Shown here piece after piece: positions 25,939-36,055 of a DNA stretch of 64,000 bases. The notes beneath the pieces are model-generated. The model made no database searches and was not told the DNA's origin. It was given only the letters and a program-made list of their open reading frames with translations. The DNA comes from Candidatus Marinacidobacterium sp. (GTDB lineage: Bacteria > Acidobacteriota > Vicinamibacteria > Marinacidobacterales > Marinacidobacteraceae). The position numbers and the translations under genes were made by a program. How positions within the stretch are numbered: position 1 is the first letter of the stretch; every line of letters starts with the position of its first letter. The stretch lies in assembly GCA_965204755.1 (NCBI GenBank), contig OZ242011.1, positions 448,001-512,000 of the forward strand. The letters run 5' to 3'.

Positions 25939-26559
25939 GTGGAAGAACGCGCCGGCCCGGTTCGGGCCCCGAACCCCGGAAGGAACTGGACCCGGGGCCT
26001 GCCGGAAGACCTGAGCGAGAAGATCGACCGTGCCGACTACGACCAGGCCCGCACCACCGTCCGCTCCATCGTCGAAAGCCCGATCTTTGACCTGTTCCGA
26101 GCCGAGCCCCGAGGGGACATGCCCGTCGGCGTGTTGGACCGGCAGGTGTGCGAATGGATCGGAGCACGGACTTTTCTCGTTCGGCTCCCTGACCGCGTCA
26201 TGCACAAACAGGACGGCCGTCACGCCAACGCAGACCTGCCGGGCCATCCGGAACTCACCATGGACGACTATCGGCGCCTCCCGGCGCTCGTCGAACGCCC
26301 CGACTTCGTCTTCCGCGCCGAACCGCGTCGCTCGACCGGGATTGGCACGCTCGACCGCCGACTGAACTTGGTCCGCCAGGTTGACGGCCGGATCTACCAC
26401 CTCGTCGTCGAACGGCGGGCGACGGATCGGAGCGTGGAAGTCGTCAGCCTCCACCGAATCAAGGCCCCGAGAGTGAGGGCGAGGCTCGAACGAGCCGAAG
26501 TATTCCGACCTGTGGACTGGAAGAATTGGGACTGGAAGAACTGGGACTGGAAGGGATGA
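25939..26559 (+). CDS. Hypothetical protein, putative BECR-fold (PBECR2-like) RNase toxin domain
   Basis: KQ..(R)H...HPELT.DDY..LP followed by a beta-strand run (LNLVRQVDGRIYHLVVE...VEVVSLHR), recalling PBECR domains of MuF-type polymorphic toxins. Recognised from memory only. Confidence 0.5.
   Translation: MEERAGPVRAPNPGRNWTRGLPEDLSEKIDRADYDQARTTVRSIVESPIFDLFRAEPRGDMPVGVLDRQVCEWIGARTFLVRLPDRVMHKQDGRHANADLPGHPELTMDDYRRLPALVERPDFVFRAEPRRSTGIGTLDRRLNLVRQVDGRIYHLVVERRATDRSVEVVSLHRIKAPRVRARLERAEVFRPVDWKNWDWKNWDWKG
26512..26556 (+). repeat. 15-bp tandem repeat encoding (W)DWKN x~3 at the C-terminus
   Basis: gtggactggaagaat tgggactggaagaac tgggactggaaggga. Confidence 0.85.
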
Positions 26560-26560
26560 G

Positions 26561-26714
26561 GCGGGACTGCGCCTGGTAGTCCCATGGGGCCGCCCGACGA
26601 GCACCGCGCTAACGCTCGCCGCTCGGAAGAACCGAGTCCTTTTGTCGGGTTGCCAGGCACCCCTCACCGCATCAGCGTATGCGTAGAGGCGACGGCCCTT
26701 GGGCGGATGCTAGC
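26561..26714 (+). ncRNA. Candidate structured ncRNA, copy 1 (hairpin, multibranch junction, pseudoknot)
   Basis: Begins 2 nt after the ORF stop. Pairings GGGACT/AGTCCC, GGGCCG/CGGCCC, CCCGAC/GTCGGG, CTCGG/CCGAG, CCTC/GAGG; loop GCCTGG complements CCAGGC. Duplicated 203 bp downstream. Confidence 0.55.
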
Positions 26715-26815
26715 ACGGGATCTGGTTGGCGGCGGGGCCGTAGCGAAACCGGAAGAGACGACAGCGGGACTGCGCCTGGTAGTCCCGCGGGGCCGCCCGA
26801 CGAGCACCGCGCTAA

Positions 26816-28776
26816 CCGGAAGTTCCAAGGGGCAAGAGGCCAGAAGTCCAAGAAGGGACGGGGGATCCGGGAAGCGGGGGGTGTTCGGTTCTGGCTACGC
26901 GGAGGCGGGAAGGCGGAGCAGGTCGAAGGCCTTTGCCTGGAGCCGGGTGGGGTTCGCGCGCATCTGGAAGGTGGCGTTCCGGCTGGGGGCGCGGACGGTG
27001 TTGAGGGTGAGGGTCCCGAGGTGCTGGATCAGCGTCGGGAAGTCGTGCAGCGGCAGCCCCTCCGGGGTGCGGCGGGCGGCGACCTTGGCCTTGGCCGCCG
27101 GGGAGCGCTGCGCGGGCTGGACCGGGGAGGGGCGCTCGCGCTCGGCGGCCTCCCGGTCGTGGTCCTGGAACAGGACGGGGGCGAGCGCCTGGCGCATGTG
27201 CCATTCCAGGTAGTAGGCGAGCATGCACAGGAAGATGTGGGAACGGACCCGGTCGGGGCGGCGGTGGTGGATGGGGCGGACCTGGAGGTCGAGGGACTTC
27301 ATGCTGCGGAAGGCGGTCTCCACCGAGGCGAGGGACTTGTAGGCGCGGACGGTCTGTTCGGTGGAGAGGAGGTCGGGTTCGGCGTTGGTGCGGAGGATGT
27401 AGAAGCCGTCGAGGGCCCGTTCCCGGGCGATGGCGTCTTCGTTCCGGCGAAAGGCGAAGGAGTCGTCGGTGATCTCGGTGAGGAAGTGCTTTTCGACCTT
27501 GAAGCGGCCGATGAGGGCGCCGACGCGCTTTCCGATGCGGGCGGCGCCGCGCAGCGGGCGGCGCTCGCGCCGGGTGGCGGCGGCGATGGCCTCCAGCCGC
27601 TTCTCGGTGGCGGCGAGCAGGTCTTCGCGCTTGCGGCGGCGCTCCTCGGCGAGCCGGGGGTTGAAGCAGACCACCAGGCGCTCCCCGGGGTAGCGGTCGG
27701 AGGAGATCTCGGCCAGGTCCCGCCGGTCGAACAGGGTGGGGTTCACCGCGCCGGCTTCGACCAGGGCGCGGATGTCGGCGGAGCGCAGCGCGGTGACCCA
27801 GCGGAAGCCCTCCTCCGGGCTCAGGTCCTCGCGGATGCGCCGGGCGGTGAGCATCCCCCGGTCGCCGACCAGGACCAGTTGGCGGAGGCCGAAGCGGTCG
27901 CGGAGTTTGGCCACCTGGGCGGCCACCGTCCCGGGGTCGGCGGTGTTGCCGGGGAAGACCTCGACGGCGACCGGGCAGCCCTCCTTGGAGCAGAGCAGGC
28001 CGAAGACGATCTGCAGGGTGTTGCGCTTGCGGTCGCGGCTGTAGCCGCGCCGGGCCAGCGGGCAGCGTCGGCCCTCGAAGTAGGTGGAGGTGAGGTCGTA
28101 GAGGATGAGGGTGTTGTCGCGGAGGTGGCGGGCGGCCAGCCGGGTCTCGACGGCCTGCTGGCGGGCGCCGAGCCAGTCGAGGGCGGCGTAGAGCTCGTTC
28201 TCCTCGACTTCCCCGAGATCGAGGAGGGCGCCGAGGGAGGTGGAGGCGGTCTCCGGGGCGAGGGTCCGGGCGGTGGCGAGTTTGGAGCGGGGGGCGAGGA
28301 GTCGGGCGGCGATGAGGGCGAGGGCGAGGTCGCGGGGGCGGGAGCGGCGGCGGTCGAGGAGGGCGGGCAGTCCGAGGCGCTTGAGGGTTCCGAGGGCGGC
28401 GGCGGCGTGGCCGTGGGGGAGGGCGCGGAGGATCTGGAAGGCGTCCCCGGGTTCGACGAGGTTCCGGCCCTCGAGGCTGAGGCGGACGGCCTCCACGGCG
28501 TCGGGTTTCGCGCGGTGGAGGGGGGTGAGGTTGGCGAGGGTTCGCTTGCGGACTTTCCCGTTTTCGCGGAAGGACTCGCGGAGGAGGACGGTGGGCGGGG
28601 AGTTCCGGTTGGGGACGAACTCGACATACATGGGCCGTATTGTAGTGATAAACCATTCAGATATCAACATCAACTATCAGGAGATGGCATATATACATGG
28701 CTACACCGTTGACTCGATCCTGCCGCAACGATCCGTAGGTCAACGACTTATCTCGAAACCCGGCTGGAACTTCCGG
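26816..28776 (-). mobile_element. IS1634-family insertion sequence
   Basis: Terminal inverted repeats CCGGAAGTTCCA / TGGAACTTCCGG; CTAA duplicated at 26812-26815 and 28777-28780; single transposase ORF. Confidence 0.92.
26895..28631 (-). CDS. IS1634-family DDE transposase
   Basis: LLRESFRENGKVRKRTLANL, YDLTSTYFEG, RGYSRD, GDRGM, VETAFR..K, RVRSHIFLCMLAY. Confidence 0.92.
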   Translation of the reverse strand: MYVEFVPNRNSPPTVLLRESFRENGKVRKRTLANLTPLHRAKPDAVEAVRLSLEGRNLVEPGDAFQILRALPHGHAAAALGTLKRLGLPALLDRRRSRPRDLALALIAARLLAPRSKLATARTLAPETASTSLGALLDLGEVEENELYAALDWLGARQQAVETRLAARHLRDNTLILYDLTSTYFEGRRCPLARRGYSRDRKRNTLQIVFGLLCSKEGCPVAVEVFPGNTADPGTVAAQVAKLRDRFGLRQLVLVGDRGMLTARRIREDLSPEEGFRWVTALRSADIRALVEAGAVNPTLFDRRDLAEISSDRYPGERLVVCFNPRLAEERRRKREDLLAATEKRLEAIAAATRRERRPLRGAARIGKRVGALIGRFKVEKHFLTEITDDSFAFRRNEDAIARERALDGFYILRTNAEPDLLSTEQTVRAYKSLASVETAFRSMKSLDLQVRPIHHRRPDRVRSHIFLCMLAYYLEWHMRQALAPVLFQDHDREAAERERPSPVQPAQRSPAAKAKVAARRTPEGLPLHDFPTLIQHLGTLTLNTVRAPSRNATFQMRANPTRLQAKAFDLLRLPASA

Positions 28777-28916
28777 CTAACGCTCGCCGCTCGGAAGAAC
28801 CGAGTCCTTTTTCGGGTTGCCAGGCACCCCTCACCGCATCAGCGGAAGCGTAGAGGAGGACGGCCCTTGGGCGGATAGTAGCCCGGCGTCGCGATCGGCG
28901 GCGGGCCGGCTGACGG

Positions 28917-29516
28917 TCAGGCTTCGTCGGGTTCCGGTTTCGTTTCCGCGGGGTCCTTCGCGGCGTCGGGACGGCGGAGGGCGCCGTCGACGCCGGAGTC
29001 GCGTTCCAGGACGCGGCCGTAGAGCCAGAGGAGGTCGGAGAGGCGGTTCACGAAGGCGAGGGTCTCCGGGGACGGAGCGGCGGCCTCGCCGCTCTCCGCC
29101 AGGCGGAAGAGGGCGCGTTCGGCGCGGCGGCAAGCCGTCCGGGCGAGATCGAACGCCGCCGCCGCCGTGTGGCCGCCGGGGAGCGCCCAGTCGGAGAGCA
29201 TCCCCTCGCGGGATTCGAGGCGGCGCACCTCGTCGGTGACTTCGGCGACGGCCTCCGCCGGGACGCCGCGGGCGCCGGCGGCCGGTTCGGCGGATGCCGG
29301 GGCGCCGATGGAGGCGGAGACCCCGAACAGCAGTCGCTGCAGGTCTTCGGCGCGGCGGCGGATCTCCGGCGAGGGCGCGAGGGAGCGGGCGAAGCCGATC
29401 GCGGAGACCAACTCGTCGAGGGCGCCGAGCGCTTCGACGGCGGCGGACGCCTTCGACACCCGGCGGTCGCCGAGTTGCGTCCGGCCGGTGTCCCCGAGCG
29501 TCGTGGAGATGCTCAC
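28917..29516 (-). CDS. ATP:cob(I)alamin adenosyltransferase, PduO type
   Basis: T..GD.G.T, G.LDEL, RTACRRAER, NRLSD. Confidence 0.9.
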   Translation of the reverse strand: MSISTTLGDTGRTQLGDRRVSKASAAVEALGALDELVSAIGFARSLAPSPEIRRRAEDLQRLLFGVSASIGAPASAEPAAGARGVPAEAVAEVTDEVRRLESREGMLSDWALPGGHTAAAAFDLARTACRRAERALFRLAESGEAAAPSPETLAFVNRLSDLLWLYGRVLERDSGVDGALRRPDAAKDPAETKPEPDEA

Positions 29517-31995: not shown

Positions 31996-32034
31996 GGAGA
32001 ACCATCCTTCCCAGCGAAGAGATCGCGGTTCGGG

Positions 32035-32262
32035 GCTTCCGGGCAGGTCTCCTGACTCACGGAACGGACGCCGGTCCGCGGCGTCCCCGCCCGATCCCCC
32101 CTTCCCCCCGGCTGGCAGCCGGGAGTGGGCGCCGCGCCCGCCGAAGCGGGGCGGCCCGGGTCGGGCCTCTCCGATCACAGTGGCGTGGGCCGTCCGGGAT
32201 TTCCACCCGGTTCCCTCTTCGTCCGACCGCCGGTTGCCCCGGCCGCCGGAAACCTGGAAGCC
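32035..32262 (-). promoter_or_regulatory. Cobalamin (AdoCbl) riboswitch
   Basis: Minus strand AGGGAA-CCGGGTGGAAATCCCGG-ACGGCCC..GCCACTGTG ... GGGAAG ... B12 box GAGTCAGGAGACCTGCC, closed by GGCTTCC/GGAAGCC. Confidence 0.92.
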
Positions 32263-32357
32263 AGACTTGTGTTGGAAGCGCGGAGGATAACGCCGCCCCC
32301 GGAGGCCGCCGCCCGGCCGGCCTGCGCCGCCGGAGGCTTCGCGTATCGTTCGCCTCC

Positions 32358-35969: not shown

Positions 35970-36055
35970 TGGTGCCGAAGGGGGGACTCGAACCCCCACG
36001 GGAGTGATCCCATACGCCCCTCAAGCGCACGTGTCTTCCATTCCACCACTTCGGC
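35970..36055 (-). tRNA. tRNA-Leu (anticodon GAG)
   Basis: Reverse complement GCCGAAG...TGGAATGG..anticodon loop TTGAGGG, long variable arm, GTTCGAGTC and encoded CCA. TATAAT upstream at 36104-36099. Confidence 0.95.

Follow-up and report, generated by a model that had tools for sequence, protein, structure and literature searches.

A structured RNA at the 3' end of MuF C-terminal domain genes, a candidate partner for a phage-borne RNase-like domain

Introduction

What is the GC-rich element that begins 3 nucleotides (nt) after the stop codon of a short open reading frame (ORF) in a bacterium of the Vicinamibacteria, and what does its position there mean? The element lies at positions 26561-26714 of a 64,000-nt stretch of DNA from Candidatus Marinacidobacterium sp. 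(contig OZ242011.1, positions 448,001 to 512,000; hereafter the window), directly after the TGA at 26557-59 on the plus strand. Comparison of homologous sequences indicates that it is a genuine structured RNA, read from the plus strand, with a unit size of ~140-160 nt, and that it belongs to an undescribed RNA family, without an entry in Rfam 15, that comes in at least two architectures. As judged from sequence, this RNA is genetically locked to one domain only, the C-terminal PBECR-type domain of Mu F-like head proteins (MuF-C). As to what it does for that domain, we give not quite an even chance to the reading in which the RNA binds and neutralises the RNase-like domain, as a type III-like antitoxin or immunity factor.

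Temperate phages widely carry MuF-type head proteins that end in an RNase-like domain, which poses two questions, the target of these domains and their tolerance by the producing cell. Iyer et al. (2017) define MuF-C as a PBECR (BECR-fold) domain and call that of Mu itself inactive (PMC5512222). For MuF-C that study predicts a "previously unknown role ... probably via RNA binding"; active orthologues are expected there to be RNases.

Results

Covariation supports a closed multihelix fold

The fold that emerges from the alignments is predicted to comprise a 5' hairpin, P1, followed by a closing helix, P2, around the helices P3, P3b, P4 and P5 (Table 1). An earlier note on this DNA had proposed just such a 5' hairpin and long-range closing helix around a multibranch junction, and this framework is borne out comparatively; the pairings and motifs that it listed (P1, P2, the hairpin CTCGG-AAGAA-CCGAG, CGCAT/ATGCG, GCCTGG, CCAGGC, and GGGCGG at 26701) all lie where it had placed them. 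The plus strand is fixed because the first pair of P2 is a conserved G-U, found in 49 of 53 copies in alignment A2 and 13 of 13 in alignment A5 (both described below).

Inside the junction the drawing had to be changed. The P3 of the note (CCCGACGAG/TTTGTCGGG) can be drawn in copy 1, and is part of its centroid fold, but is not conserved in the other copies; it was rejected, as the helix (CCCGACGAG/UUUGUCGGG) occupies strands of the conserved P3 and P4, both of which exclude it. What survives of its P5 is the inner hairpin, a position at which the other copies carry a hairpin of different sequence, as read from the alignments without a formal count. The alternative pairing that it allowed for GGGCGG finds no comparative support, since the 3' tail differs among copies except for a UAGC motif. 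P3b is peripheral, and some phage versions lack it. Together with the U-rich tract that follows it, P3b resembles an intrinsic terminator (26621-26646; 28789-28814), a pattern that occurs 3 times against 2.3 +/- 1.8 in shuffled sequence, which is no excess.

The note had named shuffled controls and covariation among homologues as tests of its fold, and the two give different answers. Taken alone, copy 1 folds no better than chance: its minimum free energy is -66 kcal/mol, where dinucleotide shuffles give -63.7 +/- 4.1 and 53 of 200 of them are as stable (z -0.56). For the reverse strand, z is -0.16. Covariation, on the other hand, is found in each of three alignments, in none of which did any of 500 shuffles reach the observed level. 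In A2, which holds 53 copies, 93.2% of cells are paired as opposed to 89.0% in shuffles, 20 pairs are changed on both sides where 10.5 are expected, and controls with the 3' partner slid along are 36-51% paired; this alignment is fitted to the model and its copies are related, such that its counts, like those of within-genome shuffles, overstate independence. The other two are MAFFT alignments of phage copies (see below) and are not fitted to a structure. A5, with 13 copies of subtype A, has 96.3% of cells paired (85.6% in shuffles) and 17 double-changed pairs (9.9), and A6, with 9 copies of subtype B, has 94.1% (87.2%) and 15 (5.3); both support P1, P2, P3 and P4.

The changes on both sides of a pair are spread over the individual helices. 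P1 shows an A-U to G-C change in 7 of the 53 copies of A2, and in the locus L276 its stem is replaced entirely (GAGGCG/CGCCUC). Both sides have changed in five of eight pairs of P2 in A2, eight of ten in A5 and six of eight in A6; in all seven pairs of P3 and three of five pairs of P3b in A2; and in four of five (A5) and three of six (A6) pairs of the P4 stem. RNAalifold, run on a MAFFT alignment of the 13 unbroken copies of the window's genome, recovered P1, P2 and P3b and misdrew P3 and P4, and the final structure was thereafter set by hand. A reading frame shared within the RNA is excluded, as 10 of 22 phage sequences have stops in all three frames.

One could still hold, with the poor z of copy 1 in mind, that the element is a non-functional GC-rich repeat whose pairings arise by chance. 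This is barely credible given the covariation in three alignments and the compensatory changes in two pseudoknots, and given that the element is conserved from 47% to 74% G+C across phyla.

Two pseudoknots

The earlier note had further paired the P1 loop, GCCTGG, with CCAGGC, which it took for a junction strand. Compensatory changes uphold the pseudoknot, but CCAGGC is the loop of the P4 hairpin, and the contact (PK1) is thus a kissing interaction between the P1 and P4 loops. All six pairs of PK1 form in all 22 phage copies; such invariance proves nothing by itself, and the test came from homologues found from the protein side (see below). There, the loci L242/L243 and L246 combine a GCCUGA loop with UCAGGC, a compensatory G-C to A-U change, and ACCUGG is matched by CCAGGU in L276/L277, where the whole P1 stem has a different sequence. 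By comparison of these loci we read two independent double changes, at opposite ends of the kiss. The few PK1 variants among the Marinacidobacterium-type copies of A2 point in no single direction: two are wobble pairs, five are cells that do not pair, and the one double change belongs to a degenerate copy.

A second pseudoknot, PK2, is seen in the phage copies, in which the P3 loop CUNNN pairs with an NNNAG; after this NNNAG come AUUUUGCC and then the 3' strand of P2. Five haplotypes occur, CUCCC/GGGAG (9 copies), CUCGC/GCGAG (6), CUGCC/GGCAG (4), CUCGC/UCGAG (2) and CUGGA/UCCAG (1), four of them complementary, with five of five pairs in 20 of the 22 copies and four of five in the other two. 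The mean of 4.91 pairs compares with 4.00 +/- 0.14 when the strands are re-dealt among copies, and none of 10,000 re-deals reaches it.

No match to a described RNA

The note could match the element to no known riboswitch or ribozyme, and this stands. At gathering score, Rfam 15 finds only a cobalamin riboswitch and a tRNA in the whole window, both elsewhere; at E<=10 it finds only SNORA38 noise (13.7 bits) in 26400-26900; and at E<=1, in four plus fourteen related loci, only noise and clustered regularly interspaced short palindromic repeats (CRISPR). A full-text search of the literature, which does not reach supplementary files such as the alignments of Iyer et al., found no published description of the RNA.

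The upstream ORF encodes a MuF-C / PBECR-like domain

The ORF upstream of copy 1, P0001 (Table 1), is conserved as a protein of ~200 amino acids (aa) in 18 database clusters at 42-99% identity, one of which carries PF18812 in a precomputed table. It aligns to the C-termini of phage MuF proteins and begins just past the MuF core, which is lost in this lineage; the Phage_Mu_F domain is accordingly found in the phage homologues and is missing from the window's own ORF. Pfam PBECR3 matches P0001 at E 0.016 (15.6 bits, below the cut-off of 30), and the phage homologues give weak but recurrent scores of 14.7, 16.9 and 16.6 bits for PBECR3 and 14.1 bits for PBECR1. A search of PHROGs with P0001 returned no family. 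The C-terminus of P0001 contains WDWKN three times, the product of tandem 15-nt repeats (26514-26551), a tail lacking in its paralogues and phage homologues.

An AlphaFold2 model of the ORF, built on a 30-sequence alignment, has a predicted local distance difference test score of 84.5 and a predicted template modelling score of 0.81. Foldseek retrieved nothing for this model from the PDB at E<=0.001. A wide structural search with VIA-align places BECR toxins at the top, with Z values of 5.2 for BrnT, 5.1 for two CdiA-CT domains, 5.0 for a Salmonella toxin, 4.5 for colicin D and 4.3 for RelE. Alignment A7 (13 sequences) has an invariant K90 and S170 and either H or R at position 97; in A8 (30 sequences) S170 alone is invariant, with K90 nearly so. 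PBECR3 and colicin-like RNases are described as having a site formed by a lysine or histidine and a terminal strand (PMC5512222; bioRxiv 10.64898/2026.08.28.747851), and the K90/97/S170 pattern would fit the K/H...S/T site of these families.

The same RNA follows phage F genes in several phyla

An exact-pattern scan for the P1 hairpin covered metagenome-assembled genomes (MAGs), IMG/VR viral contigs and metagenome contigs. It matched MAGs titled Calditrichia, Halothiobacillus, Zhongshania and Gammaproteobacteria, in addition to viral and metagenome contigs; 36 of the 48 viral pattern matches, and most of the 63 distinct metagenome ones, were seen on reading the sequences to be chance occurrences in coding DNA and were dropped. 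What remained are 22 distinct full-length phage-type members of 47-72% G+C, with model E values down to ~1e-15, which fall into two subtypes (A, 13 members; B, 9) that differ in their peripheral hairpins. To judge from these sequences, the same RNA is present in Mu-like phage contigs from several phyla. The P4 of the phage versions has a 5-6-bp stem, with sequences such as GGGGG/CCCCC, GAGAG/CUCUC, GGGAA/UUCCC, CCCAG/CUGGG and CCCUG/CAGGG, and a 7-nt loop, CCAGGCA.

Here, too, the RNA directly follows the gene for the domain. At 17 of the 21 phage-type loci with enough upstream DNA, a homologous ORF ends -1 to 55 nt before P1, the longer gaps accompanying apparent frameshifts or small insertions; the other four loci (L156, L179, L192 and L195) are orphans. 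In the metagenome contig L192 (3-611) the orphan RNA, of subtype A, lies 186 nt past an unrelated ORF whose C-terminus presumably resembles that of a restriction-modification enzyme. The phage ORFs consist of a Mu F core (YPPNGWGCRCRV) and then the C-terminal domain; Phage_Mu_F (PF04233) was found in five of the five tested, at E 7e-9 to 2e-27, and the closest relatives in isolated phages are annotated as 'F protein' and 'head morphogenesis protein'. In phage Mu (L279, 1890-1893), gp30 (F) and G overlap by 4 nt, and there is no room for an intergenic RNA. The RNA itself, searched by blastn against 50,697 phage records with subtype A, subtype B and the type-2 RNA of L232 (see below), gave no match with any of the three; one partial match of a type-2 RNA falls in an unannotated stretch of Mannheimia phage vB_MhM_3927AP2.

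CRISPR arrays are involved in two loci. In the metagenome contig L186 (787-824), a 38-nt spacer of an ordinary 24-repeat array matches the stop codon and P1 of subtype A phages like those of L142 and L161, from which we infer that hosts target such phages at the junction of stop codon and P1. In L093 (695-1421), a Halothiobacillus MAG contig, the full RNA follows a MuF-C ORF with a frameshift, and a CRISPR array with DR16-like repeats (33 bits) lies 12 nt away; this closeness was not taken as functional, a defence island, a remnant and an assembly artefact all being possible.

The arrangement in phages is also what one would look for in a cis-acting element of the late (head) operon, which would act in translational coupling or in processing or stability of the mRNA, perhaps as an autoregulatory operator bound by MuF-C, the bacterial copies being remnants. 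The subtype B RNA ends ~10 nt before the Shine-Dalgarno sequence GGAGUAUAGCnAUG and the start of a Phage_tail_S (Mu G-like) gene, and the closing helix starts within a few nt of the stop codon, such that ribosomes that end translation there have to open it. One BECR-fold RNase, T4 RegB, is directed at phage mRNAs (PMC5512222). We nonetheless consider this explanation unlikely. Some phage-type loci (L088, L100) have no nearby downstream start, and the window has no following gene on the same strand, the RNA there being followed by copy 2, an insertion sequence and then a convergent gene. Nor would a coupling device readily explain up to six copies behind one ORF, or orphans with compensatory changes.

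Starting from the protein: a smaller related RNA

The association can also be approached from the protein. Viral contigs scanned with the C-terminal domains alone gave 39 loci related to subtype B and 13 related to subtype A, and subtype-specific models placed the window-type RNA directly after the stop codon in 8 of the 39 and 5 of the 13. All eight positives of the subtype B scan are among the closest relatives, and four of the five of the subtype A scan are among the more distant matches. In all 52 loci the 230 nt after the stop codon were then read by eye. Nearly all of the others have, in the first ~110 nt after the MuF-C stop, a smaller RNA (type 2; Table 1). As read by eye, its closing helix is at or beside the stop codon, a P3-like hairpin has a CUNNN loop, and an NNNAG lies in the loop of an ACGG/CCGU hairpin; the type-2 RNA would thus keep the closing helix, P3 and the PK2 core and dispense with P1 and P4. 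It adds the complementary haplotypes CUCGA/UCGAG, CUUGC/GCAAG and CUGC/GCAG to those of PK2. Since these smaller RNAs, too, follow MuF-C, the RNA of the window would be one architecture of a wider set tied to this domain. What looks like a third form follows a MuF-C ORF in the viral contig L269 (1050-1170); its closing helix is GAGUUGA/UCAACUC, one of its hairpins resembles P3 and another contains GCCAGGCA.

Arrays and orphans in Marinacidobacterium and its relatives

In the window's genome, a single contig of 3.98 Mb and 71.7% G+C, the 21-nt P1 hairpin occurs 14 times, and each time the remainder of the element comes after it at 69-93% identity. A covariance model (R1) built from the 13 unbroken copies was run on 61 genomes, the window's own and 60 relatives. 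It has 15 matches in the window's genome (copy 2 being counted twice) and 32 in the single other genome from that genus. Three genomes of a second genus have 4, 1 and 1, and the remaining 56 of the 61 genomes gave no match.

In the window's genome four copies directly follow a long ORF, a paralogue of P0001 or P0001 itself. Four more stand behind repeats of the last ~40 codons of the ORF, in tandem arrays whose periods are ~350 and ~560 nt; two come after a shorter piece of the ORF end, one (copy 2) comes after copy 1, and three have no remnant. The ten regions fetched from the other genome of the genus hold 33 P1 hairpins, one more than the number of model matches, of which 9 come directly after a long ORF, 1 after a fragment, and 23 are downstream repeats or orphans. 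The architecture is in short ORF + (RNA)n, with n from one to six tandem copies and several loci per genome. Compensatory changes in P3 and P5 set the copies of an array apart from one another, which suggests maintenance. Elsewhere in the window's genome, two copies stand tail to tail ~35 nt apart, at 2041878 (+) and 2042197 (-), the plus-strand copy having no long ORF upstream. Among the PBECR-like paralogues of this genome that have no RNA (Table 1), one ORF has two PBECR-like domains and another is directly upstream of the head ORF of the four-copy array.

Multiplication of this kind (14 copies here, 32 model matches in the related genome, tandem arrays, orphans), in a compact double-pseudoknot architecture with invariant unpaired bases, would also be seen if the element were a self-cleaving ribozyme or a selfish mobile repeat with a target-site preference for MuF-C genes. 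We find this very unlikely: the element has neither terminal repeats nor target duplications, no recombinase accompanies it, no Rfam ribozyme family matches, and the array units contain the 3' end of the ORF, as unequal crossing-over would leave them. Linkage to one domain across phyla and in two RNA architectures argues instead for a partnership.

A partnership could take another form, in which the RNA is a cofactor, a cargo or a substrate: a ribonucleoprotein with MuF-C would be packaged and injected, or the RNA would direct the RNase or switch it on, with different specificities supplied by the hairpins and tails that vary among array copies. MuF-type proteins are virion components, the RNA-binding role predicted for MuF-C by Iyer et al. 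(PMC5512222) would suit such a complex, the core of the RNA is conserved whereas P3b, P5 and the 3' tails vary, and arrays of diverged copies stand behind one ORF. Against it, stand-alone bacterial modules have neither a MuF core nor a capsid context, and we regard this possibility as quite unlikely.

Copy 2 and the neighbourhood of the module

The earlier note had counted the second copy as a repeat of the first. A second copy is indeed present but is not intact, as an insertion sequence of 1959 bp splits it (Table 1). This has the features of IS4-like elements, namely a DDE transposase (ORF 26895-28673 on the minus strand; Pfam DDE_Tnp_1, E 1.6e-15), terminal inverted repeats and a 6-bp target duplication, GCTAAC, at 26811-16 and 28776-81, and its assignment stops at the DDE level. 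It sits in the P3 loop, for which reason copy 2 should be inactive. The module lies between two housekeeping genes, a GAPDH gene upstream and a convergent cobalamin adenosyltransferase gene downstream (28917-29516, minus strand), and is not in a prophage. The two Rfam matches in the window, both on the minus strand, are the cobalamin riboswitch at 32025-32272 (64.9 bits), upstream of a long minus-strand ORF, and the tRNA at 35973-36055.

Table 1. Predicted features of the RNA module; positions refer to the window unless another source is given
Feature	Position	Strand	Remarks
ORF P0001	25939..26559	+	206 aa, exact start uncertain; MuF C-terminal / PBECR-like domain (BECR-fold, RNase-like) that stands alone
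RNA copy 1, core (P1 to P2 3' strand)	26563..26699	+	covariance model R1, 149.5 bits
Copy 1, variable 3' tail with UAGC	to ~26714	+	
P1 hairpin	26563..26583	+	GGGACU 26563-68 / AGUCCC 26578-83; 9-nt loop GCGCCUGGU
P1-loop bases GCCUGG	26571-76	+	PK1 5' strand
P2 5' strand GGGGCCG	26586..26592	+	partner 26693-26699
P3 local hairpin	26595..26621	+	CGACGAGC 26595-602 / GCTCGCCG 26614-21; 3' strand in RNA letters GCUCGCCG; loop ACCGCGCUAAC
P3b hairpin	26622..26636	+	CUCGG-AAGAA-CCGAG (26622-26 / 26632-36); U-rich stretch after
P4 hairpin	26647..26662	+	GGGU 26647-50 / ACCC 26659-62; loop contains CCAGGC 26653-58
P5 variable hairpin	26668..26683	+	CGCAU-CAGCGU-AUGCG (26668-72 / 26679-83)
P2 3' strand CGGCCCU	26693..26699	+	partner 26586-26592
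RNA copy 2, 5' part	26766..26816	+	P1, P2 5' strand, P3 5' strand and loop; 51 nt, 96% identical to 26561-26613; partial match to covariance model
Insertion sequence	26817..28775	-	1959 bp; 11-bp terminal inverted repeats CGGAAGTTCCA
RNA copy 2, 3' part	28776..28867	+	P3 3' strand, P3b, P4, P5, P2 3' strand; covariance model, 53.6 bits
Copy 2, details	CCAGGC 28820-25; P2 3' strand 28861-67	+	direct-repeat families D3, D4, D6
Four PBECR-like paralogues with no RNA	2823505-2824377, 3086133-3087860, 1183765-1185057, 3059711-3060646 (window's genome)		
Type-2 RNA loci	L232-L241, L244, L247-L265, L267, L268, L271-L274, L278		viral contigs

Discussion

The reading that we favour is that the RNA is the partner and antidote of the domain that it follows. 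It would be transcribed together with the ORF ending 3 nt upstream and would be a dedicated ligand of MuF-C. Binding would probably take place on the shared transcript, while the domain is leaving the ribosome; stop codon and RNA are so close that the nascent domain could meet its RNA there. The bound RNA would hold the putative RNase activity in check, a cell that produces phage would be shielded from the domain until packaging of the protein, and chromosomal modules and orphan copies of the RNA would behave as toxin-antitoxin or orphan-immunity modules.

An inhibitory role is preferred for several reasons. The domain keeps a putative RNase-like site, and Mu, the one relative considered whose domain is reportedly inactive, has no RNA. 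A related MuF-BECR family has a proposed immunity protein in the same downstream position; a protein (DUF6883/DUF4926) was put forward there as the immunity factor from its conserved association (bioRxiv 10.64898/2026.08.28.747851). Spread of the module as a free-standing unit in many copies resembles that of toxin-antitoxin pairs; several RNA units per ORF are what one would expect if RNA were needed in excess; and orphan copies persist.

Several points weigh against this assignment. In phages the RNA exactly fills the gap from the F stop to the ribosome-binding site of the next gene, a placement that suits cis-regulation equally well. The gene order (toxin first), the unit size of ~150 nt and the fold of the toxin differ from those of every known type III system. 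On the protein side, the Pfam PBECR scores are under the curated cut-off, the structural Z values (at most 5.2) are moderate, and four more distant PBECR-like paralogues in the window's genome have no RNA. On the RNA side, a survey of 16 runs listed no RNA run that contains the locus; model R1 finds nothing below E 0.29 in B23 and POA1180, the isolated phages nearest in their F proteins (41% and 37% identity), which have unannotated gaps of 273 and 308 nt; and a consistent register for PK2 was not found in the Marinacidobacterium-type copies, that of the window included. Finally, the copies of one genome are kin, so that shuffle counts exaggerate their independence, and Mu, with its inactive domain and no RNA, is a single case.

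An antidote made of RNA brings to mind the type III toxin-antitoxin systems (ToxIN, CptIN, TenpIN), in which an endoribonuclease is paired with a co-transcribed, pseudoknotted, tandemly repeated RNA, and which are both phage-borne and chromosomal and often multi-copy. Pseudoknots and arrays are found here as well, and co-transcription would be expected. Type III systems have repeats of ~34-36 nt upstream of a toxin of the ToxN/AbiQ-type fold. The present units, in contrast, are of ~150 nt with two pseudoknots (PK2 in the phage versions), stand downstream, and accompany a BECR-like protein; short repeats upstream of a ToxN/AbiQ/CptN/TenpN-type toxin are not what this locus holds.

A second comparison is with orphan arrays of toxin tips and immunity genes in contact-dependent inhibition (CDI) and Rhs systems, in which a 3' fragment of the toxin and its protective gene are arrayed in tandem after the full-length gene. 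Here the ORF fragments are only ~40 codons long and the 'immunity' unit would be an RNA. The MuF polymorphic toxins are nearer in domain layout, with an N-terminal MuF domain, a variable C-terminal toxin domain and a protective factor directly downstream. They differ in that the downstream factor here is RNA rather than protein, no protein immunity gene being found directly downstream, where the stretch is an RNA with no common reading frame, and in that the window's genome lacks the MuF core. With the PBECR/MuF-C family of Iyer et al. the correspondence is direct, as the upstream ORF is this domain, for which RNA binding or RNase activity was predicted; an RNA partner is not mentioned in the available text (PMC5512222), and the present RNA would be that partner.

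A fuller version of the antidote reading, which we hold with less assurance and would call possible rather than probable, is that this is the first RNA-based immunity for a phage-delivered BECR-fold RNase, and that bacteria captured domain and RNA together and amplified the RNA into arrays. Were this so, the arrays would be excess antitoxin, or decoys against MuF-C toxins injected by incoming phages, and the module would represent a new type III-like class of toxin-antitoxin or immunity system, whose toxin fold and RNA architecture are both new and whose gene order is reversed.

The covarying double-pseudoknot RNA at the 3' end of the domain is a concrete candidate for the RNA partner of MuF-C, for which the available text of Iyer et al. 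names none, and the pairing of RNA and domain brings the question within reach of experiment. Should the RNA prove to be an antitoxin, neutralisation of toxins by RNA would extend to the BECR superfamily and to polymorphic toxins, and the RNA arrays in the genomes of Vicinamibacteria would be explained.

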